Positions 921-60,114 of a stretch of DNA of 64,000 nt are shown one piece after another. Source of the stretch: a virus (taxonomy: Duplodnaviria > Caudoviricetes); IMG/VR virus record IMGVR_UViG_3300031555_004309, positions 33,440 to 97,439 of that record; one strand, 5' to 3'. Both the position numbers and the translations under genes were made by a program. Numbering within the stretch: position 1 is the stretch's first letter; each line of letters begins with the position of its first letter. Under the pieces are notes generated by a model. The model had not been told where the DNA came from. It made no database searches and saw only the letters and a list, made by a program, of their open reading frames with translations.

Positions 921-1452
921 AATTCCACTTTTCTATTTCTTTTAAAAATTCTTCACTTTTTATACTTAATTCTTCTATTGTTCCATTGTTCCAAATCGTA
1001 TAATCATATTTTCCAGTATCAGTATTTAAATCTGCGGAATTAAAAAACTTCTCAATCCCATCTCTTTTTATCAAAAGAGTTCTTACAATAATTTTTCTTT
1101 TCTTGAATAACTCCACGAACTCTTTTATTTCCAATTGTTCTCTACAATGAATAAAAACAATACATTCTTTATCGCAAATTTCTTCATATAAATTAATATT
1201 TGCAATATCTTTCATTACTTCTTTAACAGGACCGTTATTATAACTCTTCCACGCTCGTTTTAAGTCTGCTAAAAAGGCGCGCCCAGCATTATCTTTCTCA
1301 CCTTTCCAGCCCATCGTAGTCGCAATCTCTTTCACACTTGTAATTGTAGAAAGATTCTTAATTTCATACTTATCCATACAATAAGTCCTTAACAAAGTAA
1401 CAAAAGTATCTTTACCTGCACCGCCAGCGCCATTAATAATTACAACTTTCAT
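919..1452 (-). CDS. P-loop nucleoside monophosphate kinase-like protein
   Basis: N-terminal GAGGAGKDT Walker A; C-terminal YDYTIWNNGTIEEL typical of phage dNMP kinases. Confidence 0.7.
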   Translation of the reverse strand: MKVVIINGAGGAGKDTFVTLLRTYCMDKYEIKNLSTITSVKEIATTMGWKGEKDNAGRAFLADLKRAWKSYNNGPVKEVMKDIANINLYEEICDKECIVFIHCREQLEIKEFVELFKKRKIIVRTLLIKRDGIEKFFNSADLNTDTGKYDYTIWNNGTIEELSIKSEEFLKEIEKWN

Positions 1453-2453
1453 TATTTCTGCCTCGCTGCTAAATTAAAATCTTCAATTTCCATTTTTCCA
1501 TTCGGAAATAAGAATTTAAACACTTTCATTGCAGAAGGAGTTTCAAGTCCAACTTTTGGAAATTTTACATATCCATCTGCAAATCCATATTTAAAATATT
1601 GAAATTGAATAGGAGTAAAATGTTCAAAATCAAGTTCTTTCTTAAAAGTTTCAAGACTTTTCCAAAATACTTCTTCTCTTGCTTCACGCGCGGCTCCTTC
1701 TTTCGTAGTATAAGTTGTATCTAACATTTTATGGAAAAAGGCACAATGTTCGCCCATATTTCTAAAAACTTTCTTTTCGTTATATTCATTTTTAAAAATA
1801 GTTTGATATGCGAAAATCAAAGTTTCTATTACATCTTCTAAATGGTCAACTGTAAAAGAACCTTCACTTCTTGTAATCGATTCTTCATTATGCATCCAAT
1901 AATACATAGGTTCATTTAAATACCCAACCTTATCAGATAACATATAACATATAGTATTAAAACTACCATCTTCATTATATCTATCACAGAATTTAATACC
2001 TTTTTCTTTTAAATAACTTCTTCTATATACATTACCGTGAAGCCAAGTAGTATCGCCTTGTCCCATTCTATTCCAAGTCTTTTCTTTTGTTTGACTAAAA
2101 AATGCGCCAATAAGGACGTCCATTCCATTTCTTGTCATTTCCGTCTGTGCCATTTGAACTGCACTTGGAGCCAACATATCATCAGCATCTAAAAACATAA
2201 TATACTGATTATTAGTATGGTCTATACCGACCTGCCGCACTAAGCCAGGATACTTCATATTCTTCTCATTTCTAATATACTGAAGTTTAATGAAAGAAGA
2301 AAACTTGTCACAAATCGACTTAATATCCTGAGTTGAACAATCGTCTACTACTGTCACCATACATTTTTCAGGATTTGTTTGGGATACGATTGATGCTAAG
2401 GCGCGCGGAAGCGTCTTTTCTGCATTATAGCAAGGAATTATAATATCAACCAT
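1452..2453 (-). CDS. Glycosyltransferase family 2
   Basis: IIIPCYNA, VVDDCST and FLDADD (DxD) GT-A motifs. Confidence 0.9.
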   Translation of the reverse strand: MVDIIIPCYNAEKTLPRALASIVSQTNPEKCMVTVVDDCSTQDIKSICDKFSSFIKLQYIRNEKNMKYPGLVRQVGIDHTNNQYIMFLDADDMLAPSAVQMAQTEMTRNGMDVLIGAFFSQTKEKTWNRMGQGDTTWLHGNVYRRSYLKEKGIKFCDRYNEDGSFNTICYMLSDKVGYLNEPMYYWMHNEESITRSEGSFTVDHLEDVIETLIFAYQTIFKNEYNEKKVFRNMGEHCAFFHKMLDTTYTTKEGAAREAREEVFWKSLETFKKELDFEHFTPIQFQYFKYGFADGYVKFPKVGLETPSAMKVFKFLFPNGKMEIEDFNLAARQK

Positions 2454-14858: not shown

Positions 14859-16055
14859 ATGTATCTTGTAGATACAAATGTATTATTAGAATATCCATCA
14901 GTTTTAAGAACTTATCAAGGTGAAATTAAAGTTACTTTATCAGTTGTAAAAGAATTAGATGAATTAAAGCGTAGTTTAAATGCGGAGACGGCATACAATG
15001 CGCGCCGAGCCATACATAAATTAAAGAGAGACGAAACAGTTAATTACTATCCGGAGGTAATTAAAAAAATAGTTGACGATGATTTGTTGGCGGTGGCGCA
15101 GAAAGTAGGAGATATTTTAATAACTAATGATTTAAATATTCACATTAAAGGAAAAGCATTAGGAGTAGAGTGTATTTTTTATGATAAAGTCGAAACTAAT
15201 TATACTGGTGTAAGATATTTAGAAGTTGAATGTGATGAGAATATTTATAATGAAGAATTAGAGGTTATTTTACAAGGAAGAGAGCCTCTCGAAGGAATGA
15301 AGGAAAATGAGTTTTTAATTATTACCGATAAGAACAGTGGAGATTTTATGTCTACTATGAAAGTTAAAAATGGAAAACTTGAATTAATAAAAGAAACTCA
15401 GATAAAAAACAGATTTATAAATACTATCTTTCCTCGTAATCAAGAGCAATCGTGCCTGTTTGATTTATTATGGGATAAAGATATTAGTATTATTCTTGCT
15501 ACTGGAGAATTTGGAACAGGTAAAAGTTTTATTTTAACTAATTTTGCATTTCATCAGTTAGATAAAGGATATATTAATAAAATAGTATATGTTCCCAATA
15601 ATTCTATCGTTGATAATTCAAGAGAATTAGGTATTTTGCCAGGTGACACAGTAGATAAAGAATTAATATATATGGGTCCTCTTCTCGACCTTATTGGTGT
15701 AGAATATTCGAGAGAATTCATTCGTCAGGGCAAGGTAGAAGTCGTACCTCTTTCAGTAATGAGAGGTCGTAGCTTTGAAAATTCTATTGTCATTGTCAAT
15801 GAAGCCCAAAATTTAACTACCGAGCATGTGAAATTGCTTGTCGCTAGGTGTGGCGAGGGTACACGAATTTTCTTTGATGGAGATATAAAACAGACAGATA
15901 ATCTTATTTTTAAAAATAAGAATGGACTAAAACTTCTTCTTCACCTTGCCGACAGTGAAGAATTTGCACCAATTTTTGGTACAGTTAGATTAAATTCTAT
16001 TGAAAGAAGTAAAACCGCACAGGCGAGTGCATACTTAGATAATCTCTTAATTTGA
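14859..16055 (+). CDS. phoH: PIN-PhoH ATPase
   Basis: N-terminal PIN (VDTNVLL, ITND); GEFGTGKS, LGILPG, MRGRSF, NEAQN, GDIKQ. Confidence 0.9.
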   Translation: MYLVDTNVLLEYPSVLRTYQGEIKVTLSVVKELDELKRSLNAETAYNARRAIHKLKRDETVNYYPEVIKKIVDDDLLAVAQKVGDILITNDLNIHIKGKALGVECIFYDKVETNYTGVRYLEVECDENIYNEELEVILQGREPLEGMKENEFLIITDKNSGDFMSTMKVKNGKLELIKETQIKNRFINTIFPRNQEQSCLFDLLWDKDISIILATGEFGTGKSFILTNFAFHQLDKGYINKIVYVPNNSIVDNSRELGILPGDTVDKELIYMGPLLDLIGVEYSREFIRQGKVEVVPLSVMRGRSFENSIVIVNEAQNLTTEHVKLLVARCGEGTRIFFDGDIKQTDNLIFKNKNGLKLLLHLADSEEFAPIFGTVRLNSIERSKTAQASAYLDNLLI

Positions 16056-21325: not shown

Positions 21326-22026
21326 TGGAAACTAATATTGTATATAATTGTGATTGCATGGACGTAATGGCAAAAATGCCTGCAAAATCTATTCCTTTTA
21401 TTCTTACCGACATTCCTTATGATGAAGTTCAAAGGGAAACGAATGGTCTTTCTCAAATGAAGAGTTTAGATACTCTTGGTGCCGCGGATAAAGCGACTTT
21501 TAATACTCTTAAATTCTGTGAAGAAGTTTATAGAATTTGTGGTAATAGTCTTATTATATTCTGCGGACGCGAACAGTTCAGCGAAATATTTAAATTCTTT
21601 GCAAATAAGCCAGGTACTACTCGACCAATAGTATGGGAGAAAACTAACCCAGTACCTTCAAATGGACAGTATGTATATTTAAGTGGGGTAGAATTTGCAG
21701 TATGGTTTAAAAGAAAAGGTGCTAAAACTTTTAATGCAAGATGTAAGAATACTGTATTTAAGTACCCTATTCCTGGTGGTAAGAAAAGAATTCACCCAAC
21801 TCAAAAACATTGGGATTTATTTAAAGAACTTATTCTTGATAATACAAATGAAGGAGATATAGTTTTCGATCCTTGTGCGGGCGGACTAACAACTATGCTG
21901 GCAGCAGTAGAAACTAATCGTAAATTTATTTGTTGTGAAAAAGATTATGAGACTTTCAAAAAGTCTATTGATTGGTATAAAGCAAATACAGATATAGAAA
22001 TTATTACAGGAATGGAGGAAGTATAA
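21325..22026 (+). CDS. N4-C/N6-A DNA methyltransferase (beta class)
   Basis: TDIPY (variant of DPPY), IVWEK, HPTQK, DPCAGG SAM motif. Confidence 0.85.
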   Translation: METNIVYNCDCMDVMAKMPAKSIPFILTDIPYDEVQRETNGLSQMKSLDTLGAADKATFNTLKFCEEVYRICGNSLIIFCGREQFSEIFKFFANKPGTTRPIVWEKTNPVPSNGQYVYLSGVEFAVWFKRKGAKTFNARCKNTVFKYPIPGGKKRIHPTQKHWDLFKELILDNTNEGDIVFDPCAGGLTTMLAAVETNRKFICCEKDYETFKKSIDWYKANTDIEIITGMEEV

Positions 22027-22715
22027 TGGGGGAATATAGTAAAAAGGGTTCTTATGCAGGATATGATAAAGACCATTTAGATCGTGCTGACTTAGATTAT
22101 TATGCAACTCCACCTGAAGAGGTTGAGAATATATTAGAAAAAGAAGGATTGCGTTGGTTTACTGTTGAAGGAATAAACACTTCTTGCACTATATGGGAAC
22201 CTTGTTGCGGTGGTGGACACATGGCAAAAGGTATTATAGATTATCTTAATAAAAATCATATTTCTACTACTCATTTCTTTATGAGCGATTTAGTTGATAG
22301 AGGTGCGCAAGACTATATCGAATCTTTATATGAAAATTCGCAAATTCAGTATGATTATGGGATAGATTTACTTGATCCAGAAGAAGATTTTCCTATCACG
22401 GATTTTATTATAATGAATCCACCTTTCAAAGATATAGATAAATTTGTTAATGCAGTTTTTTCTTGCTTCAGTCATAAACTCATTATGCTTGCACGTCTTA
22501 AATTCATAGAAAGCAAGAAGAGATATGAAGAAATATTTTCTAAAAATCCACCAACTCGTATCTACCAGTATATAGACCGAATTGCTTGTTATAAAGATGG
22601 AGATTTTTCTATCAAACCAAATTCAATAGAAGCATATGCTTGGTTTGTATGGGATAAGGACGATCCAAGTAAAGATACAACTTTAAAGTGGATTTGGAGT
22701 AAGAAACATAAATAA
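22026..22715 (+). CDS. N6-adenine DNA methyltransferase
   Basis: YYATP, WEPCCGGG SAM motif, NPPF catalytic motif, YAWFVW. Confidence 0.85.
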   Translation: MGEYSKKGSYAGYDKDHLDRADLDYYATPPEEVENILEKEGLRWFTVEGINTSCTIWEPCCGGGHMAKGIIDYLNKNHISTTHFFMSDLVDRGAQDYIESLYENSQIQYDYGIDLLDPEEDFPITDFIIMNPPFKDIDKFVNAVFSCFSHKLIMLARLKFIESKKRYEEIFSKNPPTRIYQYIDRIACYKDGDFSIKPNSIEAYAWFVWDKDDPSKDTTLKWIWSKKHK

Positions 22716-40231: not shown

Positions 40232-41452
40232 TTAATAATACTTATAATTATATTTTACCTCAATTTTGAACTTTTGTCCAATAATAGAGTTCGGCACTGA
40301 AATTTTTAATCTACTTCTACCTTGAGGAACTTCAGTCCAATTTGAATTCTCAATTAAGTCATATCTCATATCATAAATTTTATTCATATCTAATGAAGGA
40401 TAGACTTTTACAGTATGGTCTTTTGAATTGAGAAGAATATGATTATTTTTGAATAAACTTTGAGTATTGAAAGATAAGGAATATCCTTTATCTAACCATT
40501 CATAGTAACTTTCAGGTATTTCATTTGGTAAATTCCAATAATTTTTAAGGCGAGGTACTTGTAATTGAATATCAATTATTTTTTTCTCTGTAATCTTTTC
40601 AGTACCATTATTAATGTCAAAAAATATTTGTATATTCGCAGGTTTATCACCTGGATTATAAAGAGGAATATAATATACATTCGTTCCTTCAGTTGAGTCT
40701 TCGGTACTCTGATATGGAACATTTATATTCTTCTCTTTGAATTTTCTTTCTGTTAATAGGCCTGATGCTTTACCCCATTCATCATTCGCCGCGTCCCAAT
40801 CGGTAGGAGGAATGTACTCATCTAAAAATTGCCAATTAGTTTTTCCAGTATATCTCAACCCATATTCAATCGTCATTTTATTGCTGTCATCTGCGCAGTA
40901 GCCAAATGGATCGTATGCGATGAAATTGAATTCTCCTTCTCCTTTATATATACGACGCTTATTACCGACGGTAATAGGAGAAGTTGTGAAGCTGAATTCT
41001 TGTGGCTCATTTGGAGAATGCGCGGGAGGATTCTTTGAAAAACCGTCATATATAGGAGTAAAGTCAGTGGGGCCGCCTGAGTAGCCATCTATATCTTCTT
41101 CTTCCGAAAAACATACATAATTAAGGATAGGACGAGAAGATAACTTTGCAAAATAAGTTTTATAAGGTCTTTCATCAAATTGAAGAGGTTTTAAATCTTC
41201 TGTTTCTATCCAACTACGAAGATTTCGAAGATTTTCCTCTGTCATACTATCAAAAGCAATTTGAATTTTAAAAGGAATTGGTTTATATTTTTGTCCTTGA
41301 TAAATGTCTCCATGCCCACCTGCAACAGATACCGAATAGTTTTCGAAGTCGGGAATAAGACCTTCCTCGAAACGAGAACCGTTGGAAGTACGGTATATGT
41401 TGTAGGTGGAAGAATGGATATGGTTAAAATAGAAACCTGTAAAATCTGCCAT
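40232..41452 (-). CDS. Distal tail protein (Dit)
   Basis: Between TMP and Tal; FTGFYFN, LQFDERPYKTY, FIAYDPFGY, NPGD motifs. Confidence 0.8.
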   Translation of the reverse strand: MADFTGFYFNHIHSSTYNIYRTSNGSRFEEGLIPDFENYSVSVAGGHGDIYQGQKYKPIPFKIQIAFDSMTEENLRNLRSWIETEDLKPLQFDERPYKTYFAKLSSRPILNYVCFSEEEDIDGYSGGPTDFTPIYDGFSKNPPAHSPNEPQEFSFTTSPITVGNKRRIYKGEGEFNFIAYDPFGYCADDSNKMTIEYGLRYTGKTNWQFLDEYIPPTDWDAANDEWGKASGLLTERKFKEKNINVPYQSTEDSTEGTNVYYIPLYNPGDKPANIQIFFDINNGTEKITEKKIIDIQLQVPRLKNYWNLPNEIPESYYEWLDKGYSLSFNTQSLFKNNHILLNSKDHTVKVYPSLDMNKIYDMRYDLIENSNWTEVPQGRSRLKISVPNSIIGQKFKIEVKYNYKYY

Positions 41453-41468: not shown

Positions 41469-44400
41469 TTACTTTGATTTTTTAAGAATGTTGATATTAC
41501 GATAGCCTGAGGCTTGTTGAATTTTTGATTGAAGGTGAGATACTGCTTGGTCGACATCATAGTCAGAAGCAATTGAATCTACCTCGATTGTGATATTGTA
41601 TGTTGCATTTGAAGTTGATTGAGAGTTTGGATAAGTTGGAGCAGTTGAATCGAAAGCGATTGAAAGGATGTCGCGAAGTTTGGCAATGTTAGCAGTGTCT
41701 GCCGCGGAAAGAAATGCTTCGGGATTAGCTTTTGTGCCATCTACCCATGTTGGACCAGTGAAATCAACCAAACCACCTTTTGCATTAGTAAGCATTTTAG
41801 GAGTATTATATTTATTTTGCCCCGCAATAATTTGAGATATTTCTTCTAAAGTAAAAATTTCAGTTTCTGATTTAGCAAGCTTATTAAGAGAACCATTACC
41901 AGACTCAATTTCTCCTTCATTTTTCCCATAAAAATCACTTTCTTTCGCATATCTTGGAGAATCATTAAATTCTTGAAAACGAGAACGAATTCGATAATAC
42001 TTTGTTCCATCAATTTCAACTATACCAGAACCTGATTCATGATACCAACCTGCCTCTTTATTAGCATAATTAATATTACCATTTTTATCTTTTACTGTAA
42101 TTGGTCTTAAACTTGTTTTTGTATAAGGAGATAAAGTCGACGTAGTATTTTTAGAAGGATTTTGATCTTTCACATTATCAGTTGAAAAATTCGCAGCTTT
42201 TTCCTGAGCATCTTTTAAATCTCTCGCTGCTTCTGCTGCTTTTTTTATCGCTTCTCTTAAGTTATTATATGCACTTACTAAACTATCTCCATTTCCATCA
42301 ATAATGTTAACTAAATTACTATATTCTCCTGCTAATTCACTAACTGAACTTTGAACTCCTTCATTAGTAACCTTTGCATTATCTCCATATAACTTAATTG
42401 CCTCATCTAAATCAGTAGCAGATTCTTGCGCAAGGGTTATTGCTTGTTGAACAGAAGTAATACTTCCATCTTGAAGAACTTCTTTCGAGGCCTCTCCATT
42501 TCCAACTAACTCTGCATATTGTTGTTTAAGCAATTCTTTTTGAGCTTTACTTGCTTTTAAATATTCTTCATCATTATTCATAAACCAAGTAACTAAATCT
42601 GTATCTAATTGCTTAATTTCCTCATAATAATCTGTCATTAACTCTCTCTTTCTTTCAAGAGTTGTTTCAGTATAATATACATCCTTATCCATTGCTTCTG
42701 CCCGCGCATTATTTTCTTCTTCTAACTGATCTACCATTCGGTCTACTGCTTTATCGCTTAAATCTTGGTAATCTTGTTTAAGTTCTTTTTCTAATGCGCG
42801 AATTTCAGAAGAATAGATACCAGATGTATCCATCTTCATCATAGCAAGTTTTCTTTCTTTATCTCTTACTGCATCTTCATCATTTTTCTGTTCTCTTAAT
42901 GCGCGTTCTTTATCTATCATCTTACGCACGCTATCAAGATATTTATTATCTTCTTCTTTTATTGCATCATATTTCTTTTTAGTAAGTTCGAGTTCTTTAT
43001 CTTCTTTTTTCTGAATAACATCAATAAGTTTATTTTCAAGTTCAATAACATTTTCATATATCTCCTTATTAATGTTTTGAGTTTTGTCAAGACTGTCTTG
43101 AACTCCTTTTGTATATTTCTGAACAGCTTTTAATTCATCATTATAAGCCTTTACATTATCTTCAATGGCTTTCTTTTGTCCTTCTAATACTGCAAGGGTA
43201 ACTTCATTATTTTTAATTTTAGCATCTCGAATTTGTTCTTCAAGTGCTAACATTTTTTGTTGATCAATAATAATATTACCTTCTGCACCGAAGGATAAAT
43301 AGTCTTTTGTTTGAGAATTAGAATTAATAGCATTTCTACGTGCAAGTAAGTTACGTTCTGCGCCACGCTTACCTGCTATATTACCAGCCATTTGACGTTG
43401 AATTTCATTTAATTGAGATTTTAAATCTTTTGCAATTTCTTTTGGATTTGTAGAAAAACTAATTTCAAATTCAAGATTATCTATCTTATCCTTAATTCTA
43501 TCAAGTAATGCATCGAGATTAGAATATTTATCTACATTATTAAGATAGTCTACAAAATTTTGCCAAGCCTCTTTAATTCTATCCATTTTTTCTTTCATTT
43601 TTTCCAATGCAGGATCTACAGCGTGATCAATTTCTTGCTTAATAGTATTCGCCGACATTGTAATAAGAGTTTTATTTAACTCCATAGAAAGAATTTCTGC
43701 TTCAGCTTTTTCTTTTTCTGTTCCATCTGTCATAAGCGCAAGTTCTTGGCGTCTTTTCTTTATTCTTGCATCTAATAATGTTAAAATAACTTCTGTAGTA
43801 GTTTTTTCGCCAGTTGCTAAATCTACTTGTGCTTTCTGTAATAATGTGCTATTTAAACCGATACCTTTTGATGTATATGTAAGAGCATTATTAAAATTAT
43901 GAATCATTTCTATTGATTCTTTAAAATCTAACCCTTCAATTAAAATATTTAAAATTTGTTGCATTTGTTCTGCAGTTGCAGTTCCTTCACTTGCAGCATT
44001 CAATGCCTCTACACTATCTTTTAAAGAATCAATATTATTTTTGCAATATGTTGCTATATCTGCAGTATTTTCTAATGGTAACTCATCTAATCCACCAGCT
44101 AAATCTACAATCGTTTGAGAAGTAACTTTAGTAGATACATTTAATTGCTTCATTTGTTTAACAAATTTTTCAATCCCCTCTAAGTCACTTACATCTGCAG
44201 TATTTAGAGCATTTATTGCTTTTTCAAAATCATTTATATCTTTAATACCATTCTGAATATTTTGTTTAATAGTTAAATATTTTTGTCCTGCATCTTTACC
44301 ATAAACTTCTTGTAATTTTGCTGCAGTTTGTTGCATCGCTTTTATTTGCTCAAGAGTATATCCTTCAATAGTTTCTCCATCTAAAAGAATTACATTTTGA

Positions 44401-47400
44401 ATTGCGTTTAATTCATCTTTCGTAAAAGTAAAAGCATCTATAAGACTTTGTTTATATGCCTGATATTCAGGAGAATTTTTATTTATATCTAGTTCTTTAA
44501 GATAACTAGACATAATTTTATCCAAATCACTCGTTGCTAAAGACTCTGGAGTTAATGCTTTTCCAAAAATTTCTCCTAATTCTAACTTTTCAGATGAAAG
44601 AATTTTATTAAAAATCTTATTATAAGTTTCTTCATCTAATCCTTCCATATATCTTAAGAAATCTTCTTCAGTGAAATTTTCATCATCTGTAAAGGCCTTT
44701 GCAAATGCTTTTGCAAATTTTTCTTTGCTTTCTGCAGTAACAGAAAATTCAAAATCTATTTCACTTAAACTAACATTCAAAGTTTGCTCCCATGCTGCTT
44801 CTACTTGACTATATCCTTTAGTAATCATATCTCCTATTTCTGGAATTTTTTCTACTATTTGCATATAGTTATTATACCAAGTTTCTAATTGATGTTGGCT
44901 TGTAGCTTGAATATTTGATTCAGATAGTGTTTTTGAAAAAGTTTTAAAATCAGTTAAATCTTGATTTGCAGCGAGATCTCTAAATTTTTTAAATTGCTGT
45001 TCATTTATACTTGCCCCTGCACCAAATACAGTATTTAAATCTTGAGTCATAAAACTCTTTTTAGTACCAGAGAGATAACCTTCTAACATTTTTCGTAATT
45101 GTTCATTACGGTAAGCAGAAACTCCACCTTGTACAACCAACGGAGAAGCGGCTCCTAAAGTACCGACTGTAGCTAAATGTTCTCCTGCAATTTTAAGAGA
45201 TTCCACTATTTTACCATAACCAATTATATCTTTAGTAATTTTATTAGCTTGTTCTTTTGAACTTTTAGAACTAAGATTTAATGATTGAGAAAGATAATTT
45301 AATCTATTTTGTGCTTGTTCAAAAGAAGCAAAATCTTCACCATAAATACCTTGATTTACAAGCTCTTTATTTTTAGAAATATAAGCGTTCCTTTTCTCTT
45401 TGTTAAGTTTCTTTTGATTCTCCAATTCTAAAGCAATAGCATCTGCATTTCTAAGATGATAATTGCCTTCTTCATCAATATAATTTAATAAAGTAGGATA
45501 ATCTTCAGCAATAGATTGTTGAGCATTTTTTAATTCTTCCTGTTGTTCTGTCGTAAGAACAAGCATATCCTTGTATTTTTCAAGAATATTTAAGTTATCT
45601 TTTAATGCTTTTGTTTTTTGAACTTGATTTTGATACTCATCATATTTTTTACTTAGTTCATCTAATGCCTCAGAATTATCGGTAATAACTTTATGCTCTT
45701 TTTCCCATAATTTTAGTATTCCATATCCTGCGGCAACTAAAACTGCCATAGCAGCAATAATAAGTAATAAAGGACCATATGCTTCTAATTCTGCCGCAGC
45801 AAGAACTTTAAAACTAATTGAAGTGTTTTTATTTGAGAGATCAACACCTTTTTGTTTTAAGATATATAAAACATTCTCATCACTTAAAGCTTTTTTTGTT
45901 GCCCATTCTGTTAATTCAGTATGAATAAGTTTTTTAAAAGAAACTATTTCTCCGTTTTGAATTATACGAGATTTTAAAGAAACAGCATTATCTTTCTCTT
46001 TTAATCCTATATTTGTTGCAATTGTAGCACCTAATTTTTCTAATGCTTTATCAACTATAAAAGTTTTTGTTGCCCATAAACCTAAGCCACCAACTATAAG
46101 AGAAATATAAGGTCCAATTGCAGGTATTTTATTTATTTTATTAAAAATTCCAACAATACTATTACCAAGTTCAATAAACCATTTTATTGCACCACTTGTA
46201 ATAATACCAGAATAGAATTCTTGCCAAGCAGATTTTAATCTATTTAAACTTGTCTCAATACTCTCTTGTGCTTTAGCTAATTGTCTCGCGCCAGTTCCAG
46301 CAGAATTTTGTGCAACATCAACAAGTTCAAGCGTTCTATCATAATTTTCCATCATAGCAATAAAACGAGACTGTTGACGTGAACCCGCCGCCATGGTAGC
46401 GATATATCTTTGAGTATTCCTATCTAATCCATCCCATTTAGATGATAATTCCATAAAAACATCATCTAAATCTCTCATTTGGCCAGAAGTATCTAATAAA
46501 GTAATGCCAACTGTTTTTAAGGCTTTATCAACTTTGTTTATATCTGCTTGTTCAATAGCTTCACCATTTTCATCTATTGCATTTTTAACTTCACCAAATC
46601 TTGCAACAATCGTTTTTAATGCAGTACCTAAGTTTTCGGGTGCTTCACGAGTTGTTTCAATCATTTTAGTTAAGAAGACTTCTGTATTCTCAAGGCTTAC
46701 ACCTGCGTTTGCCGCAATTGATGCAGTTTTTGTTAAAGCAGTCATCAACTCTTCTGATGAAGTCGCTGCATTAGCACTCAATGCTGCAACAGTATCAGTA
46801 ACTCTTACTGCATCTTCTGCCGTTAACTTATAGGCGTTTAATGCCGCAGTTAATTTATTTGTTGCATCAGCATAGTCCATACCTGTGATTTTTGCAAGGG
46901 TTAAAGTTTGAGCAGTAAGTTTATTAACCTCTGCCATATCTTTACCTTGATGGTAGTAAAGATTTTGAACTTCAAGAATATTCTTAGTAGTAACACCATA
47001 TTCTTGAGCCATTTGGTTAACTTGAGAGAAAGATTGCCACATTTCTGCAGTTGAATATCTAGAAACAATAGCAATTTCATTAAATTCTTTATCAAGTTCT
47101 TGGAAATCCTTTACCGCTCCACGGACTACTCGTCTTAATACAGAAAATACAGAAGTGGCACTAAACAAATATTTGATACGATTCGTCAAATTCTGAATTG
47201 ATTTTTCTCTTTCAGAGAGTTCTTGAAGCCCTTGGCTTCCTTGCTTTGCTGCATCTCCAATTCCAATAAGTTTTTCAATTTGTTCATTTGCTGAATTAAC
47301 AACTGTTCCCCTATTTTGTTCTGCAGCTTGGCGAGCTTCTTCAAATCCTTTTTCAACATCTGTATTTGCGGCATCCGCTTGTTGTTGATATTGCTTCATA

Positions 47401-48032
47401 ATTGTAATACAACCACGAAGTTGTTGAGCAAACTTGTTTATTGCTGCCGCCTGAGCATTAAAAGTTTCTTGAGAAATATCTCCGCCTGCGAGCTTATTCT
47501 TTAGTTCTCCTAAAAGATAATCTTGACCTGATTTTAAACCAGCATAATCTCCTGCTTGCGCCGCCGCAATCATTTTTGGCGCAGTTTTATCTATTCTACC
47601 AAGAATCTGAGAACCTTTTACTCTTTCAATGGAGAAATTCCCCATTTTATCTTGCATTCCCTTAATTTTTTCGCTATATTCATCAAATACCTCTAATAAA
47701 TCTTTTACAGATTGAATATTACTTGCAAGATATTTATCAGTAAGTTCAAATCCCTTTAATTTTCCTTCCCATTGAGAAAGTTCAGTTGCAATATCTTTTA
47801 TACTATGCTCAAATGCAGCCAATTGCTTTGGAGTAGAACCACTACCAGGGATGTTGCTCATAACTTTTTTAAGTCTATTTTCAATATCCTGCAAGCCTTT
47901 AGAAGAACTTTCAAATAATTTATCACCAAGTTTTTCTTTTGACAAATCATTCTTAATCTTCTGAATTCCACTCATAATATCATTAGCATCTAATTTTCCG
48001 ACTAAAGAGAATTCAACTTGATTTTTCGGCAT
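41469..48032 (-). CDS. Tape measure protein
   Basis: 2187 aa helical protein, TP901-type core (LGTALKTIVARF, AGSRQQSRF), TM segments. Confidence 0.92.
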   Translation of the reverse strand: MPKNQVEFSLVGKLDANDIMSGIQKIKNDLSKEKLGDKLFESSSKGLQDIENRLKKVMSNIPGSGSTPKQLAAFEHSIKDIATELSQWEGKLKGFELTDKYLASNIQSVKDLLEVFDEYSEKIKGMQDKMGNFSIERVKGSQILGRIDKTAPKMIAAAQAGDYAGLKSGQDYLLGELKNKLAGGDISQETFNAQAAAINKFAQQLRGCITIMKQYQQQADAANTDVEKGFEEARQAAEQNRGTVVNSANEQIEKLIGIGDAAKQGSQGLQELSEREKSIQNLTNRIKYLFSATSVFSVLRRVVRGAVKDFQELDKEFNEIAIVSRYSTAEMWQSFSQVNQMAQEYGVTTKNILEVQNLYYHQGKDMAEVNKLTAQTLTLAKITGMDYADATNKLTAALNAYKLTAEDAVRVTDTVAALSANAATSSEELMTALTKTASIAANAGVSLENTEVFLTKMIETTREAPENLGTALKTIVARFGEVKNAIDENGEAIEQADINKVDKALKTVGITLLDTSGQMRDLDDVFMELSSKWDGLDRNTQRYIATMAAGSRQQSRFIAMMENYDRTLELVDVAQNSAGTGARQLAKAQESIETSLNRLKSAWQEFYSGIITSGAIKWFIELGNSIVGIFNKINKIPAIGPYISLIVGGLGLWATKTFIVDKALEKLGATIATNIGLKEKDNAVSLKSRIIQNGEIVSFKKLIHTELTEWATKKALSDENVLYILKQKGVDLSNKNTSISFKVLAAAELEAYGPLLLIIAAMAVLVAAGYGILKLWEKEHKVITDNSEALDELSKKYDEYQNQVQKTKALKDNLNILEKYKDMLVLTTEQQEELKNAQQSIAEDYPTLLNYIDEEGNYHLRNADAIALELENQKKLNKEKRNAYISKNKELVNQGIYGEDFASFEQAQNRLNYLSQSLNLSSKSSKEQANKITKDIIGYGKIVESLKIAGEHLATVGTLGAASPLVVQGGVSAYRNEQLRKMLEGYLSGTKKSFMTQDLNTVFGAGASINEQQFKKFRDLAANQDLTDFKTFSKTLSESNIQATSQHQLETWYNNYMQIVEKIPEIGDMITKGYSQVEAAWEQTLNVSLSEIDFEFSVTAESKEKFAKAFAKAFTDDENFTEEDFLRYMEGLDEETYNKIFNKILSSEKLELGEIFGKALTPESLATSDLDKIMSSYLKELDINKNSPEYQAYKQSLIDAFTFTKDELNAIQNVILLDGETIEGYTLEQIKAMQQTAAKLQEVYGKDAGQKYLTIKQNIQNGIKDINDFEKAINALNTADVSDLEGIEKFVKQMKQLNVSTKVTSQTIVDLAGGLDELPLENTADIATYCKNNIDSLKDSVEALNAASEGTATAEQMQQILNILIEGLDFKESIEMIHNFNNALTYTSKGIGLNSTLLQKAQVDLATGEKTTTEVILTLLDARIKKRRQELALMTDGTEKEKAEAEILSMELNKTLITMSANTIKQEIDHAVDPALEKMKEKMDRIKEAWQNFVDYLNNVDKYSNLDALLDRIKDKIDNLEFEISFSTNPKEIAKDLKSQLNEIQRQMAGNIAGKRGAERNLLARRNAINSNSQTKDYLSFGAEGNIIIDQQKMLALEEQIRDAKIKNNEVTLAVLEGQKKAIEDNVKAYNDELKAVQKYTKGVQDSLDKTQNINKEIYENVIELENKLIDVIQKKEDKELELTKKKYDAIKEEDNKYLDSVRKMIDKERALREQKNDEDAVRDKERKLAMMKMDTSGIYSSEIRALEKELKQDYQDLSDKAVDRMVDQLEEENNARAEAMDKDVYYTETTLERKRELMTDYYEEIKQLDTDLVTWFMNNDEEYLKASKAQKELLKQQYAELVGNGEASKEVLQDGSITSVQQAITLAQESATDLDEAIKLYGDNAKVTNEGVQSSVSELAGEYSNLVNIIDGNGDSLVSAYNNLREAIKKAAEAARDLKDAQEKAANFSTDNVKDQNPSKNTTSTLSPYTKTSLRPITVKDKNGNINYANKEAGWYHESGSGIVEIDGTKYYRIRSRFQEFNDSPRYAKESDFYGKNEGEIESGNGSLNKLAKSETEIFTLEEISQIIAGQNKYNTPKMLTNAKGGLVDFTGPTWVDGTKANPEAFLSAADTANIAKLRDILSIAFDSTAPTYPNSQSTSNATYNITIEVDSIASDYDVDQAVSHLQSKIQQASGYRNINILKKSK

Positions 48033-48125: not shown

Positions 48126-48971
48126 TTAAAAGTCTGCATCTATATCCTCATTCAAAAAGGTATATCTACAAACATATTCGTGTCCTCTGTCTCCTACTGG
48201 ATACCCCATTATACTAAAATCATAAATATAAGGAGTCACTGCACTACCCAGCCGCATTGTTAAATCAGATGTAAGTTTTAACTTTGGGATTTCAATGAGA
48301 GCCGTACTCTCTTTACCCGTCTGATCGTCCTTTAATCTCGTCCTACCAGTGAGACATAAAAATCCTTTTACCGCGCGCTCACCAATAGATAAATTATCAT
48401 ATTCATTGGTATACTCATAATCATAATATACTTCATATATGCCATCATCTTCTGTCATATATTTCATACTTATATATATGATATGAGGATCATTATCATC
48501 TATATCAAAACATTCATCAGGGACTCGGACACCATTTCTTCTAATAAAAGTATTTTCCTTATCTCCGTGAATGGGATATTTCACTTCTATTCTCCAAACA
48601 CTATGGTCTTGTGCCAAATCTCCACTTTCTAGCTCACTCTTTTCTATTGTCTCATTATAAGGAATAAGAATATCGTCTTGTTGATGAGTAAGAAGTTTTG
48701 AATTTGATAACATACTAAGACCTGTTTTAGAAATAACTCCTTCTGAAAATCTCATTCCAATAGAAGTTGTATTTTCCCAAGTCACAAGAATACGATCTCC
48801 GTATCCTCCGTGCGCATACCATCTTCTTTTATTTTCATTTAAGTATGCAACTTGGATTTTATCAAAAGTGATAATAGGTTCATTTTTACGAAAATAAATT
48901 CCATTTATCTTCATATCTAATGTGGGTTTGAGAGTGACAGAGTATAATTCTTTTATTCCGAAGTCAGTCAT
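48126..48971 (-). CDS. Second tail-tube paralogue
   Basis: Aligns by eye with 49044-50078 (FGIKE/YGLKE, AHGGYG/ARGGKG, IPKLKLT/IPKAKMT). Confidence 0.7.
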   Translation of the reverse strand: MTDFGIKELYSVTLKPTLDMKINGIYFRKNEPIITFDKIQVAYLNENKRRWYAHGGYGDRILVTWENTTSIGMRFSEGVISKTGLSMLSNSKLLTHQQDDILIPYNETIEKSELESGDLAQDHSVWRIEVKYPIHGDKENTFIRRNGVRVPDECFDIDDNDPHIIYISMKYMTEDDGIYEVYYDYEYTNEYDNLSIGERAVKGFLCLTGRTRLKDDQTGKESTALIEIPKLKLTSDLTMRLGSAVTPYIYDFSIMGYPVGDRGHEYVCRYTFLNEDIDADF

Positions 48972-48993
48972 AAAAATTCACTCCTTAGAAAAT

Positions 48994-49015
48994 AGGGAGG
49001 GATTTCTCCCTCCCT
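48994..49015 (-). terminator. Hairpin after the major tail gene
   Basis: AGGGAGGGA/TCCCTCCCT stem. Confidence 0.7.
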
Positions 49016-49043
49016 TAAAAGTTGAGTATTAAGTTTTATTGGA

Positions 49044-50078
49044 TTATGAACGGTTCTTAGGTTTAACCTGAGGTGCAGCAGTAGCATTTGTTGTAACAAC
49101 GCCATCTGTATCAGTTTCTGCGCCACTAGCATAAGTAACTCTCTTTGATTCAGGAAGTACTTCTTCAGCATTAGTTGAAGATTTTGTAGGTGGATTCTTT
49201 GAGAAGCCATCATATGCAGGAACAAAGTTCATTTGTCCACCAGCAATACTGTCATCTTCATCATCGTCATAATCAGCAAATTCATACTTAACAAATCTAA
49301 CCATTTCGCCGTCTTCAGGACGAAGAACTTGAAGGTTAAAGTTAAATGTAGCAGGATCACCATCTGCGCTCATTTCAAGAGTTTGTTCAGCAGTCATCTT
49401 TGCTTTAGGAATAATGAACTGGAAGTATTCATCATCGCCATTTCTTTCATTCTTAATCATTGTATCACCGACAACATAATATGTGCCAGGGAATGAATCA
49501 GGTTCAATCTTAATGATTGCCTTAGATTTTACAAGATGATTCCAAGTTGCATAAAGAACATCGCCTTCTTTAAGACCTTGTGCAGTTGTTAAAGCAGTTG
49601 TGCTACCATTCTTATAGAAAAGAATGTTTGTAGCTGTATCTCCTGCAGTGCCATAAGAAACAGAAACTTCTTTACCAAGGCCATTAACTACTTTACCATC
49701 AACTTTTACTTCAGGATAAGTGTTATTTTCTTTTACAACTACTCTTGCACTCTTAAGTACTGTACCAAATTCTGTAGTACCACTTGCGGCAGTATCACCA
49801 TATACATTACCATCACCGAGCATAACTGCGAGTGATTTTGGAGAGAAGAGAGCATCTTCAATAGTAACATTGATTTCCTTGTTGAAATCCCATACAATTA
49901 ACTTGCCATTACCTTTACCGCCGCGGGCTTCAGAAGTCTCTGCGGTCTGTTCGATGGAAGTAACTTTCAAACTATCAAGAATAAGAACAGGATAGTCGGG
50001 ATAACCAGCTTTGTTGATGTGGTAGAATGTTACGTCGGCACATTCTTTAAGACCATATCTTTGAAGTATATCAGCCAT
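49044..50078 (-). CDS. Major tail tube protein with C-terminal extension
   Basis: Synteny, codon bias of a highly expressed gene, ARGGKGN and GDPATF motifs. Confidence 0.8.
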   Translation of the reverse strand: MADILQRYGLKECADVTFYHINKAGYPDYPVLILDSLKVTSIEQTAETSEARGGKGNGKLIVWDFNKEINVTIEDALFSPKSLAVMLGDGNVYGDTAASGTTEFGTVLKSARVVVKENNTYPEVKVDGKVVNGLGKEVSVSYGTAGDTATNILFYKNGSTTALTTAQGLKEGDVLYATWNHLVKSKAIIKIEPDSFPGTYYVVGDTMIKNERNGDDEYFQFIIPKAKMTAEQTLEMSADGDPATFNFNLQVLRPEDGEMVRFVKYEFADYDDDEDDSIAGGQMNFVPAYDGFSKNPPTKSSTNAEEVLPESKRVTYASGAETDTDGVVTTNATAAPQVKPKNRS

Positions 50079-55493: not shown

Positions 55494-56762
55494 TTAATCT
55501 TCTTCTTTAAAATACTTAGCCATAAGCGCGGCCGCACCAGAATAAGAAGGTTTACCTTCTACATCTTTTAAGACCTCTTTTGTGGCTTTGTTGAATAATG
55601 TGTCTTCATTTGCATTAACAACTGCTAATGCAATTTCACTCTTTAAACTGTCAAGAGTGTAAGTGTCAATGTTCTCTTTAAATTCTTCTGTCTTTTCTTG
55701 GGGAAGAACTTCTGCGTACTTATCAATCAAATCTGATTTTTGAGCTTTTTCCTGCTCAAGTTTGTAGGTTTGAAGTTCTTCAACTTGTGCTTCGAGTTCT
55801 TTGATTCTAGCTTGTGCTTCGACATACTTGGACTCGAAATCTTCAGTAGTTTCGTTTTCTTCGCCTTCTGCGCCGTCTTCAGTTTCAACTTCTGTTTCTT
55901 CAGTTTCAGTTACTTCTTCAGCTTCTTCTACCTCTTCAACTTCTTCTGTCTCTGCTGGCACATCCTCAGCTTCAGTTTCAGTTTCTTCAGTTTCTTCTGT
56001 TTCTAACTCATTTTCAGTAGCAACTTCTTCAACTGTTTCAACTGTTTCCTCTGCTTCTGGGGCATCTGCTTCATTCTCAACTACAGGTTCTTCTTGCACT
56101 TGTTCAATTTTTTCTTCATCCATTGTTTCCGTGCCTCCTATAATCTCATTTGTTGCAGAGAAATTATAATTCTTTAATTCTTTAATAAGATTAGTTGCAT
56201 CTGTTAAGTTGTAGAATGCCGCACCCTCAAAACAAGGTTCTACATCTTGTCCTAATGCAGTTAATCCTAAAAAACAACCATCTGTGAATTCGAAATACTC
56301 AACTGCGCCATCTCTTTTCCATTCACCTTTTGCACTATCAACGCAAAGTTCCATTGATTGTGCCTTTCCTGGCAGTGCACGCGCAGCTTCGTATCTTGCT
56401 GTCCATAAGAAAATATCACAGCACGCATAATTTCTCAAAACTCCATCTTTATCAAGATGATCTTCCCATTGGACATTAGGATTTTCAGGAACTACGCCAT
56501 AAGCAACAAATTGCTCTCTGTCAAGTCCGTGGTCAGTGAAGTCTTTGTTTTCCTGGTCCCAAATCCCACCAACAGGTGAATAAGGAAGAGTAGATAATAA
56601 TTTATCTGCAAACTCCTTCGTAATATAAGTGAGATTTCTGTTCAGACCAGTATAAAAAATTCTTACCCTCGCCTTTGATAAAGTTGGATTTATTTTCTGA
56701 ACATCTCCTACAGGAGAGATTGAAAACGTAATTCGACTATTTAATTCTCTTTCCATTATCAT
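55494..56762 (-). CDS. Prohead protease fused to an acidic scaffold (YonD-like)
   Basis: NRN, QSMEL, LG..VEPCF protease motifs; long Glu-rich tract and coiled coil. Confidence 0.75.
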   Translation of the reverse strand: MIMERELNSRITFSISPVGDVQKINPTLSKARVRIFYTGLNRNLTYITKEFADKLLSTLPYSPVGGIWDQENKDFTDHGLDREQFVAYGVVPENPNVQWEDHLDKDGVLRNYACCDIFLWTARYEAARALPGKAQSMELCVDSAKGEWKRDGAVEYFEFTDGCFLGLTALGQDVEPCFEGAAFYNLTDATNLIKELKNYNFSATNEIIGGTETMDEEKIEQVQEEPVVENEADAPEAEETVETVEEVATENELETEETEETETEAEDVPAETEEVEEVEEAEEVTETEETEVETEDGAEGEENETTEDFESKYVEAQARIKELEAQVEELQTYKLEQEKAQKSDLIDKYAEVLPQEKTEEFKENIDTYTLDSLKSEIALAVVNANEDTLFNKATKEVLKDVEGKPSYSGAAALMAKYFKEED

Positions 56763-58309
56763 TGCCCTCCTGAGTTTTTGTTCTTAATAGTTTGTTCGGC
56801 TTGCTCAGTTTCGTCAACTGAAGCACCCTCTGATTCCGCTTGTCGTTGTTCTTCTTCAGTAAGTTTTTGTTTTTCTGAATCTGCTTGATTACCACTTTCA
56901 GTATGTGAAGAACGAAGTGGAACCATAACTGTTTGCATATCAAGTAGGTCAATTTCAAGTCTCTTCATATCGAGCAATTGATTTTGTTCTAATCCCATTG
57001 CAAGGCTTGGAATAAAGAAACTAAAACCATATTGCGCCGCGTTCATTGTTTGAGACAAATAATCTTTTTGATTGTATTGACCAACTGGAAGAATTTCTAC
57101 TCCAAAATTAATTTTTTTATTTGAAAAATGAGCATTAATTAAATTCTTTAACCAAATAGAAAAAGAATTTGCTAATGTCATCATTGTACAAATATCATTT
57201 TGAATTGATTTTTCAAGCGAAGTGTTTGTATCTGCTGAAAAGATTTGCTTACTAACACCTGATTCAGAGTAAAATACTTTTTCTATCTTTTCAAGATTGT
57301 TCTTTATTGTCGCATCGGTATCATGAACTTGGTGAATCTTAATTTTACCATAAGTAGTAATTGCATCAAGATTTTCATTTCCTTCAGCAATTTTCTTTAA
57401 ACCTTTATGAAGCTCAAGTGCTTCATCGGGTTCAAGAACTAGACCACCATCCGCTAAGTGTTCAATTTCTTGTGCTATGACCGCGCGTAAGTCTTGTTTA
57501 TCTCTTGCTTTTTCAAGATTGATATAATCATTAAAATTAATTACTGCGGGAATAACAGGAGAAAAGAAAGGTCTTTCTTCATAAAGTTCAAAATGGATAC
57601 CAATTTCACTTGGAAGTTTTACCCAATTTGATTTTCTCTTTCCTTTTTTATATTTCTTATATGCATCTTTAATTTCTTTAGGAAAACCTTCAAGTGCGAC
57701 TGCTAGTAGATCATCATCAGTCATTTTATCAAACCATTCAAGATTTAATTCAATGATATCTACACCAGTATAACTTTTATATCTTGATCTGCAATAAGAA
57801 TAAGGCAAATCTTGAATACAATATTCTCCGTTTACTTCTTTTACTATTCCATAATATGCACCGTCAAGCAAAACTTTTAATGCAAAGCGACGGCATAACT
57901 GTTCAAAATTAAGAGAATTGATAAATTCAAGCGCTTCAAAATATTTCTCTGCATTTTTCTTTTCAGTAATCTTACTTTTATTCCCTATCATATGGGGAAT
58001 AAGAAGTGGAGTATAATATAAAATTGTTGCATAGTAACATAAAAGTTTCTTGTAAAATCCATTTGAGTAAAAGAAAAAGTTAGATAATTCTTTTAGTAGC
58101 TCTGGATCTCCAGTTGCAATAATTTCTTCTGCTTCTTCTTTAGTATAGGCCGTTACCTTTCTCGCACGAGGCCTATTACTAAAAAAATCACTTCTACTTT
58201 CATAGTCTTCGGGATTTATTGCAATATAAGGTTCACTATTTTTTGCAAATTCTAAAAATCTATTAATGGGCTGATTAGTTTCTTGAGTATTCTTTTTTTC
58301 TTCTTCCAC
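56759..58309 (-). CDS. Portal protein
   Basis: 516 aa between terminase and protease. Confidence 0.8.
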   Translation of the reverse strand: MEEEKKNTQETNQPINRFLEFAKNSEPYIAINPEDYESRSDFFSNRPRARKVTAYTKEEAEEIIATGDPELLKELSNFFFYSNGFYKKLLCYYATILYYTPLLIPHMIGNKSKITEKKNAEKYFEALEFINSLNFEQLCRRFALKVLLDGAYYGIVKEVNGEYCIQDLPYSYCRSRYKSYTGVDIIELNLEWFDKMTDDDLLAVALEGFPKEIKDAYKKYKKGKRKSNWVKLPSEIGIHFELYEERPFFSPVIPAVINFNDYINLEKARDKQDLRAVIAQEIEHLADGGLVLEPDEALELHKGLKKIAEGNENLDAITTYGKIKIHQVHDTDATIKNNLEKIEKVFYSESGVSKQIFSADTNTSLEKSIQNDICTMMTLANSFSIWLKNLINAHFSNKKINFGVEILPVGQYNQKDYLSQTMNAAQYGFSFFIPSLAMGLEQNQLLDMKRLEIDLLDMQTVMVPLRSSHTESGNQADSEKQKLTEEEQRQAESEGASVDETEQAEQTIKNKNSGGQ

Positions 58310-58323
58310 TAATTCTCCCTCCT

Positions 58324-60114
58324 TTAATTATAAAAGAAAAGAGTACGCTTTCCTTGACGAGAACGGAGTTTCTTATACCATTCTTCTTCTAGTTCTTTTA
58401 TGCGCCAGAGTCCATATTCGAAAGCCGAAAATTTATCTTTCATCATATTAGAATTAATTTGTTCAAGTTTTATATCATTACCTGCACCTTTTAATTTTAA
58501 ATTCGCCATTTCTTCAAATAAACGAGTGGTCATTTCGTGTGGTAATATGCGCGTGATTCTTTTCTCTATCTTCATTGATTGACCAGTTTTAGAACTCATT
58601 AAACGAGTTTTTATTTCTTGTTCACGAACAAGGAATTTAACTTTACCACTAAAGATTTTATTATAACAATTTCCATCTATTTGTGGTTGAAGTGTTGCAT
58701 TTGCCTTTATACCGTATATAAGAGGAATATTTCGAGGATACATTTTTTTAGAATGAGAATCCTTTACTGCACCCGCATTAACTGAACAATATCCAGGATA
58801 GGTTTTTCCATAAACGGGGTCATAGGTTTCTTGAGCCAAAAAATCTACAAGTCCAATTCCAAGTCCATTAGCATCTATTACTAATTCTTTTGGTTGAAAG
58901 GCATCTACAAGTCGTTTAATTTCTAAAGACTGTATTGGAAGTGCTTTTTCTTCTTTCGTTTTTCCAAGCACTTGAATATTTACTAAATTACAAGTAAATT
59001 CTGATTCATGTGGAAATACTTTAAAAATACAAGCTACGGTTTGACAATTAAGTCTACCTATATCCACTGATATAATGTAGAATTCTTTGCCTCCAACTCT
59101 AATATTTTGTTGTCGTTCGGGGTTAATTAATTTTCTATATTTTGTCATCTTGTCATAATCGAACCAACTATCATTTCCGCCACCTGTCCAAAGTGCCATA
59201 TATTCACGTGCAAAAGAGTCTTCTTTATAAGTGGGACTCATTTTGATTTCTCTCATAAAATTACGGTCAAGTAGGCCCGCTTGCATAGGTACTCTATAAT
59301 CACACCCCCATACGAAAGCAGATTTAGGAGTAATTATCTCAAGTTCGAGTATTTCTATGAGCTTTTGATAAGCATAGGAATTCTTTTGTCCTGCTGATGT
59401 CATAAAATACTGTGCTTGGTGAGGTTCTTTTGGATTTACCAGGCCCGCACGTGTTCTTCTATTAACATTTAAAAGCGGAATTACAATTTCATTTAATGTG
59501 TCTCCATCGTGGTCTCTAATTTCGTCAACAAGTCCAAAATGACGACGTCCACCACGAGTGGTATCTAACGCGCCGACGACATCAAAAATTGAACCATTTC
59601 TAAAAGTCATTTTAACGTAGTCTGCGCCAGCATTGTAATTATCCCCAACTAATTCTTTTCGTAAAAGAGGGAATAAATCAAGTATTTCATCAATTTTTTC
59701 TTTTGCGATTTTTGCTGACTGTTCTTTCTTTGGCGCGCAAATGAAACATTTACTACCAGGAAGAAAAATACATTTTAATATCATAGCCAGCATAGTAATG
59801 AAAGTTTTTGAAAACGCACGAGGCGCAGTACAATAATGATAACGATATCTTAAACATGCACGCAGGAATATTTTTTGATAAAAGAATAATCTAAAATTAC
59901 TTTCGACAGGAGTTATTAATTCAATAAACTTATCAGGATATACAGTAAAATAATTCATATATTTAGTATACAAATCCCAGTTCTTTTCAATTCTTTCTCT
60001 TGTCATTATTGCGCCTTTTTCAAGTTCAATTCCATTTCGATAATAATGAAAAGTACCATTATCATCTTGCACAGTTTCAATTTTAGTAGTTCTATCTTTT
60101 AATTCTATGTTCAT
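58324..60114 (-). CDS. Terminase large subunit
   Basis: APRAFSKT, TRGGRR, LVDE Walker B, MTSAG, SVDIGR, IDANGLG, KDKFSA. Confidence 0.92.
   Translation of the reverse strand: MNIELKDRTTKIETVQDDNGTFHYYRNGIELEKGAIMTRERIEKNWDLYTKYMNYFTVYPDKFIELITPVESNFRLFFYQKIFLRACLRYRYHYCTAPRAFSKTFITMLAMILKCIFLPGSKCFICAPKKEQSAKIAKEKIDEILDLFPLLRKELVGDNYNAGADYVKMTFRNGSIFDVVGALDTTRGGRRHFGLVDEIRDHDGDTLNEIVIPLLNVNRRTRAGLVNPKEPHQAQYFMTSAGQKNSYAYQKLIEILELEIITPKSAFVWGCDYRVPMQAGLLDRNFMREIKMSPTYKEDSFAREYMALWTGGGNDSWFDYDKMTKYRKLINPERQQNIRVGGKEFYIISVDIGRLNCQTVACIFKVFPHESEFTCNLVNIQVLGKTKEEKALPIQSLEIKRLVDAFQPKELVIDANGLGIGLVDFLAQETYDPVYGKTYPGYCSVNAGAVKDSHSKKMYPRNIPLIYGIKANATLQPQIDGNCYNKIFSGKVKFLVREQEIKTRLMSSKTGQSMKIEKRITRILPHEMTTRLFEEMANLKLKGAGNDIKLEQINSNMMKDKFSAFEYGLWRIKELEEEWYKKLRSRQGKRTLFFYN

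Follow-up and report, generated by a model that had tools for sequence, protein, structure and literature searches.

A peptide shared by the tube protein tail and a Dit loop of a rumen siphophage: a probable tube arm with its mimic on the hub

The major tail (tube) protein and the distal tail protein (Dit) of a rumen phage both carry the nine residues YDGFSKNPP. The question raised by this locus is what one peptide does on these two proteins. A preliminary description of the same DNA had proposed a portable tag on tail proteins, serving either as a docking site for a decoration protein or as a recognition sequence for modification. The DNA analysed (the window) is a stretch of 64,000 nucleotides and belongs to a linear IMG/VR virus record of 97 kb. 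Its structural genes are on the minus strand and comprise those for the tube protein, a tube paralogue, the tape measure, Dit and a tail-associated lysin (1664 aa, with M23 and lysozyme domains). The following features were used.

49044..50078, minus strand: gene for the major tail (tube) protein, P0001, 344 aa; match to PHROG 2729 with E 1.7e-48 over residues 6-265.
49284..50078, minus strand: tube core, residues 1-265; the PHROG match and the homologue alignments end here, and the last predicted strand is 261-265.
49245..49283, minus strand: acidic linker of the tube tail, residues 266-278, read from the sequence; the Dit copy of the motif is also preceded by an acidic linker.
49188..49244, minus strand: tube copy of the motif, residues 279-297, GG-x3-F-x-P-x-YDGFSKNPP; proposed C-arm docking peptide, by analogy.
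49047..49187, minus strand: distal Ser/Thr-rich part of the tube tail, residues 298-344, with a conserved basic P-K-N-R end; pLDDT below 50.
48126..48971, minus strand: tube paralogue P0072, 281 aa, without the C-terminal tail; PHROG 2729, E 3.5e-12.
41469..48032, minus strand: tape measure gene, 2187 aa, assigned by position between tube and Dit, by length and by homologues in 127 related loci.
40232..41452, minus strand: gene for Dit (distal tail protein), P0002, 406 aa; Pfam PF05709, E 2.2e-9.
40955..41107, minus strand: loop insertion of Dit, residues 116-166, a proposed tail-binding loop; from alignment and the AF2 model.
41024..41080, minus strand: Dit copy of the motif, residues 125-143, SGG-x3-F-x-P-x-YDGFSKNPP; from sequence comparison.
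1452..2453, minus strand: GT2 glycosyltransferase; PF00535, E 1.2e-29.

The tube paralogue sits between the tube and tape measure genes and was conserved in 175 related loci, whatever the class of the tube tail. This slot is the usual place of tail assembly chaperone genes. The paralogue may be an additional tube component, form an adaptor ring or act as a chaperone.

The identity of the tube protein was confirmed by comparison of its AF2 model with solved siphophage tube proteins (Foldseek E 2e-9) and by the position of its gene upstream of the tape measure gene. Matches in tblastn were to tube genes of the Lactococcus 949-group and of Bacillus phages. As the PHROG 2729 match and the homologue alignments stop at residue 265, residues 266-344 were taken as a C-terminal tail of 79 residues past the conserved core. 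Among related tubes, 52 of 123 distinct tails had at most 12 residues after the core. The AF2 model of the tube was of moderate confidence (pLDDT 61), with values below 50 from residue 279 on, and this part of the protein is predicted to be disordered in the monomer. Neither a predicted fold nor a Pfam match was obtained for the tail. The basic P-K-N-R end (within residues 336-344; 49047-49073, minus strand) was kept in P0004, P0005 and L001, and the Ser/Thr-rich stretch preceding it diverges; this end may be a second contact element. An alternative-frame ORF over the tube tail (48968-49225) was considered as a frameshift product and was rejected, its translation being Leu/Gln-rich and apparently non-coding.

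Dit was identified by its Sipho_tail N-terminal domain, its galectin-like C-terminal domain and the position of its gene directly after that of the tape measure. The AF2 model (pLDDT 81) gave VIA-align Z scores of 15.9 to SPP1 Dit (residues 3-406) and 14.5 to 80alpha Dit. The loop insertion is 51 residues long and lies between strands 109-118 and 165-179 of the tube-like N-terminal domain. In 52 aligned homologues, the loop had 6-14 residues in 49 and 48-52 residues in the three closest (P0006-P0008). Residues 122-162 had pLDDT below 50 and are predicted to be disordered in the monomer. The preliminary description had placed both copies of the motif in disordered add-ons. This was borne out for the disorder of both copies and for the C-terminal extension of the tube, but the Dit copy is not terminal and lies in an internal loop.

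Dit proteins of lactococcal and streptococcal siphophages (evolved Dits) likewise tolerate insertions, but these are folded carbohydrate-binding modules, whereas the window Dit has a disordered loop, inserted in its N-terminal ring domain. In evolved Dits the modules are inserted into the galectin-like C-terminal domain and point outward. A folded binding module of this kind was looked for in the window loop and was not found, the loop being disordered in the model and having no Pfam match. Some homologues of the window Dit (P0013, P0015 and P0014-P0028) have dockerin (PF00404) or LRR_5 (PF13306) insertions elsewhere in the protein. Such domains suggest that, in rumen and gut Firmicutes, the baseplate hub engages structures on the host surface, cohesin-bearing or otherwise.

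YDGFSKNPP occupies residues 289-297 of the tube (49188-49214) and residues 135-143 of Dit (41024-41050). The two peptides quoted in the preliminary description were exact, and its interval 49179-49269 corresponds to tube residues 271-300. At the DNA level, 22 of 27 bases match between the copies, and five of the nine codons differ, all synonymously. Similarity between tube and Dit spans ~36 residues and includes an acidic run, GG and F-x-P; the Smith-Waterman score was 96, and the maximum in 5000 shuffles was 53. YDGFSKNPP was the only 9-mer common to any two of 60 non-overlapping ORFs of the window (shuffled proteomes average 0.005), and the whole 97-kb record has only two copies. Since the synonymous differences are accompanied by diverged flanks, any copying would be old and the motif core would have been held by selection. 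On this comparison the motif is under selection at the protein level, as had been proposed earlier from the codon differences. The length of the similar region suggests that the 3' end of the tube gene was once copied into dit to give the loop, or that the loop converged very closely on the tube tail.

A profile of the motif was searched against 1.84 billion proteins, and only the Dit relative P0006 and one 956-aa tandem-repeat protein were recovered. The latter (by eye CUB-like, with repeats containing YDG) was rejected as a spurious profile match. A degenerate DNA pattern of the motif, run across IMG/VR, gave only the L001 contig and three chance matches. As the motif was present in no other kind of protein searched, a widely portable tag is not supported; what stands of the earlier proposal is an add-on docking element outside either core fold. 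FSKNPPT in a DNA methyltransferase (gene 22026-22715; 22536-22556, plus strand) was considered as a third partial copy and judged to be chance. Shuffled proteomes are expected to contain 0.6 shared 7-mers each, and the window itself has three unrelated ones of 7 or 8 residues. Homologues of the methyltransferase were sought in three relatives, and none was found. The 8-mer DDDLLAVA is common to the unrelated ORFs 56762-58327 (minus strand) and 14859-16052 (plus strand), probably by chance.

Variation of the motif was followed in close relatives. In the tubes P0004 and P0005, F-V-P-A-YDGFSKNPP was unchanged, and the rest of the P0005 tail was 55% identical. The L001 tube, 93% identical overall, carries the variant FDGFTKKAP; its contig stops before Dit. 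In the Dit relatives the motif reads FDGFSKNPP (P0006) and YDGFV(P/Y)K (P0007/P0008; YDGFVPK, YDGFVYK), and all three retain SGGPT-x-F-x-P-x-[YF]DGF. Judged from these tube and Dit variants within the clade, the conserved core of the motif is G-x3-F-x-P-x-[YF]-D-G-F, and the SKNPP part is variable. At the Ser position, five copies have Ser, the L001 tube has Thr and the Dits P0007 and P0008 have Val. More distant tubes (57-66% identity) have degenerate DG[FW] tails. The cultured Lactococcus phage phiL47 and Bacillus phage PJN02 have neither the tube arm nor the Dit loop, and so provide no ready laboratory model among the cultured relatives.

Scans of metagenome, viral and genome collections with the tube alignment yielded ~180 related tubes. 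Dit was on the same fetched stretch in 51 cases, which represent 41 distinct tube/Dit combinations. A second tail motif, phi-H-N-H-x-L, preceded by an acidic or Ser/Thr-rich linker, was found in 47 distinct tube tails. L033 and L038 (L116 comes from the L038 contig) have a matching HNHxL motif in Dit, in the loop at the homologous site. In L025 a third motif, SKxLDxxLG, is present in both the tube tail and the Dit loop. Host assignment from the MAG titles of genome matches was tried and abandoned, as the titles ranged from Bacteroidales to Methanobrevibacter and were unusable for this purpose.

Tail/loop pairs on the same contig scored higher than tails scored against Dit loops of other motif classes; L033 and L038, both HNHxL, cross-match. 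The number of shuffles reaching the observed tail/loop score, out of 5000, was 0 for the window, 0 for L033, 1 for L038 and 27 for L025. Motif and spacing co-vary between the two proteins: from the last core residue to the motif, the tubes of the window, L033, L038 and L025 have 24, 18, 18 and 13 residues, and the matching Dits 20, 15, 14 and 11. In the 41 pairs, Dit loops of at least 16 residues occurred only alongside tube tails of at least 20 (Fisher p = 3e-5, the pairs being phylogenetically non-independent). Tube tails of at least 20 residues were paired with a loop of at least 16 in nine cases and with a shorter one in seven; the corresponding numbers for shorter tails were 0 and 25. In a tree of tube cores, the HNHxL tubes form a single clade (support 100/98), for which reason the co-occurrence counts are not phylogenetically independent. 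The window and L025 are on separate long branches of this tree.

About seven HNHxL lineages (L088, L114, L124, L136, L134, L160 and the L154 group) have a tube tail with a short or unmatched Dit loop. The same applies to L144, a relative of L124 and L136. The tube arm would thus be common and the Dit copy optional. The tube tails of L063 and L067 end in a Big_2 domain placed after the HNHxL motif, which points to decoration in cis, after the arm. In L194-L203 (contigs of 150-180 kb, Clostridia MAGs) the tube domain is C-terminal in stop-free frames of 750-1130 codons. These tubes have a fourth conserved tail type, TENLNLLDDAE, ending in IGATEY; the fetched flanks stop short of Dit.

A solved example of a peptide shared by tube and Dit is available from the staphylococcal phage 80alpha. 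In that phage a C-arm of the tube protein gp53 fills a crevice on the adjacent ring (Kizziah et al. 2020, PMC7048315; PDB 6V8I). The Dit protein, gp58, is without a C-arm and fits an inserted tail binding loop into the same crevice on the last tube ring; the C-arm and the loop have the triplet Y-R-F in common (PMC7048315). The authors described this match as a striking convergence, unobserved in other systems (PMC7048315). In the literature library searched, the phrase 'tail binding loop' was found in no paper beyond theirs.

In the window, as in 80alpha, the tube is extended at its C terminus, the tube-like N-terminal domain of Dit has a loop inserted, and these two segments have residues in common; a Ser/Thr/acidic C-terminal stretch lies beyond the tube arm. 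The shared element is a triplet in 80alpha, whereas here nine identical residues lie within ~36 similar ones. The 80alpha tube belongs to Phage_tail_2 and the window tube to PHROG 2729, and Foldseek ranks other tube proteins first. By position in the Pfam PF05709 profile, the Dit insertion is at ~86 in 80alpha and at ~108-111 in the window, an estimate obtained by arithmetic on profile positions. This suggests that the window loop is about one hairpin (two strands) later than that of 80alpha, in which case strand alternation would place both on the same side of the sheet. A residue-level alignment of the two Dits was attempted with hhalign, hmmsearch and a PDB sequence search, which gave nothing usable. 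Owing to the different tube family and the probably different insertion position, the window was treated as independent of 80alpha and analogous to it. Most likely, the mimicry of a tube arm by a Dit loop, known from one staphylococcal phage, occurs here in an independent and longer form. Docking was solved in 80alpha, whereas here it is proposed by analogy.

C-arms are also found on the tube proteins of other phages. Removal of the C-arm of SPP1 gp17.1 blocks polymerisation (PMC8718954). In the Brochothrix phage NF5 the tube protein gp12 has a C-arm, and Dit holds the tube by an N-terminal arm and a beta-sandwich (PMC12917162). Like the arm proposed here, those of gp17.1 and gp12 are flexible C-terminal extensions, and they fold onto the outer sheet of the next-ring subunit. 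Unlike in the window, a Dit copy of the arm is described in neither paper, and the arms have no sequence similarity to the window motif. The window tail, at 79 residues, is far longer than known C-arms. The Ig-like decoration domains of lambda gpV, T5 pb6 and SPP1 gp17.1* are likewise C-terminal additions to the tube fold. The window tail differs from these in being unfolded in prediction, and in L063 and L067 the Ig domain follows the motif and does not replace it.

By analogy with 80alpha, the tube tail of the window is probably a C-arm that grips the ring above, and the Dit loop a mimic of this arm that docks on the first tube ring. Docking, the crevice and the direction of the arm are carried over from 80alpha in the scheme that follows. 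Tube hexamer rings would stack, and the flexible acidic linker would carry GG-x3-F-x-P-x-YDGFSKNPP to the neighbouring capsid-proximal ring. There the motif would dock in a crevice in the outer surface of a tube subunit. Dit, located below the last tube ring, would present the same peptide on its inserted loop to the same crevice of the first tube ring. This contact would attach the baseplate hub to the tube, and would probably also nucleate tube polymerisation on the Dit-Tal-tape-measure initiator. Under such a mechanism the tube tail should be flexible, Dit should have an inserted loop, peptides and spacing should match, and motifs should switch together; this is the pattern found here. Both segments are disordered in the monomer models and leave their folds after a terminal or hairpin strand, as is expected of arms that become ordered in assembly.

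An alternative, which we regard as rather improbable, is that a third protein docks on the motif at both the tube surface and the hub; it might be a decoration protein, a fibre, a chaperone or a host factor. Such a partner would also explain the conservation at protein level and the matched motifs in tube and Dit. The distal 47 residues of the tube tail are exposed and are unaccounted for by a C-arm, and the genes downstream of the lysin (~31.8-35.2 kb) were outside the gene-presence comparison, as the fetched flanks end near Dit. Within that comparison, however, the genes from portal to tube paralogue were equally present in the tail-bearing relatives (43) and in the tail-less ones (48). Upstream of the tube, the head-to-tail module had no gene specific to tail-bearing phages, a result that counts against the decoration-protein dock proposed in the preliminary description. 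Moreover, the three motifs are unrelated in chemistry and each would need a partner of its own; some relatives have their decoration in cis, as a Big_2 domain behind the motif; and the solved peptide shared by tube and Dit, that of 80alpha, has the tube itself as its partner.

The other function suggested earlier, recognition for covalent modification such as glycosylation by the phage GT2, appears highly improbable. In mycobacteriophages, phage enzymes are known to glycosylate virion proteins; this phage encodes a GT2, and its motif contains Ser and runs into a Ser/Thr-rich stretch. The expected co-occurrence with the enzyme was nevertheless not seen: two complete relatives without a tube tail have GT2 homologues, and a search of three tail-bearing records gave none, although the incompleteness of these records makes that absence less telling. 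The candidate acceptor Ser gives way to Thr in the L001 tube and to Val in the Dits P0007 and P0008, no acceptor pattern is common to YDGFSKNPP and the HNHxL and SKxLDxxLG classes, and just two copies of the motif would be available in the 97-kb record. The GT2 homologues in the two complete relatives (~123 kb each; G003:C1:6215-6679 and G005:C1:78963-79379) have one in-frame TAG each, which could reflect stop-codon recoding or read-through.

Very little weight can be given to a shared stretch without a docking role, whether left over from a recent duplication or gene conversion or cut by the same protease in both proteins. The ~36-residue similarity does suggest common descent of the two segments, but the synonymous codons and diverged flanks indicate old copying with a core under selection, the motif is invariant in P0005 in spite of the divergence of the rest of its tail, the two-site pattern recurs with other motifs in independent lineages, and we know of no precedent for cleavage inside a Dit core loop.

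Under the preferred reading, of a tube C-arm with a mimic loop on Dit, a further step may be considered, although we hold it to be doubtful. The matched arm and loop peptides could be lineage-specific assembly codes, with the Dit loop copied from the 3' end of the tube gene and the code switched at least three times (YDGF, HNHxL and SKxLDxxLG). If so, these codes would decide which hubs nucleate which tubes, and would thereby restrict or direct the swapping of tail modules when mosaic phages co-infect.

The findings suggest that the arm and loop solution is found again in a large group of uncultured siphophages (~100-130 kb) from rumen and gut, with different peptides and probably a different point of insertion in Dit, and that it is recognisable from sequence alone. 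They also caution against taking every short motif common to virion proteins for a tag of modification or decoration. If confirmed, matched arms and loops would allow contacts between rings, and between hub and tube, to be predicted by a simple rule in uncultured phages, and would provide a natural set of orthogonal peptide/crevice pairs with which the nucleation of tube polymerisation could be studied.
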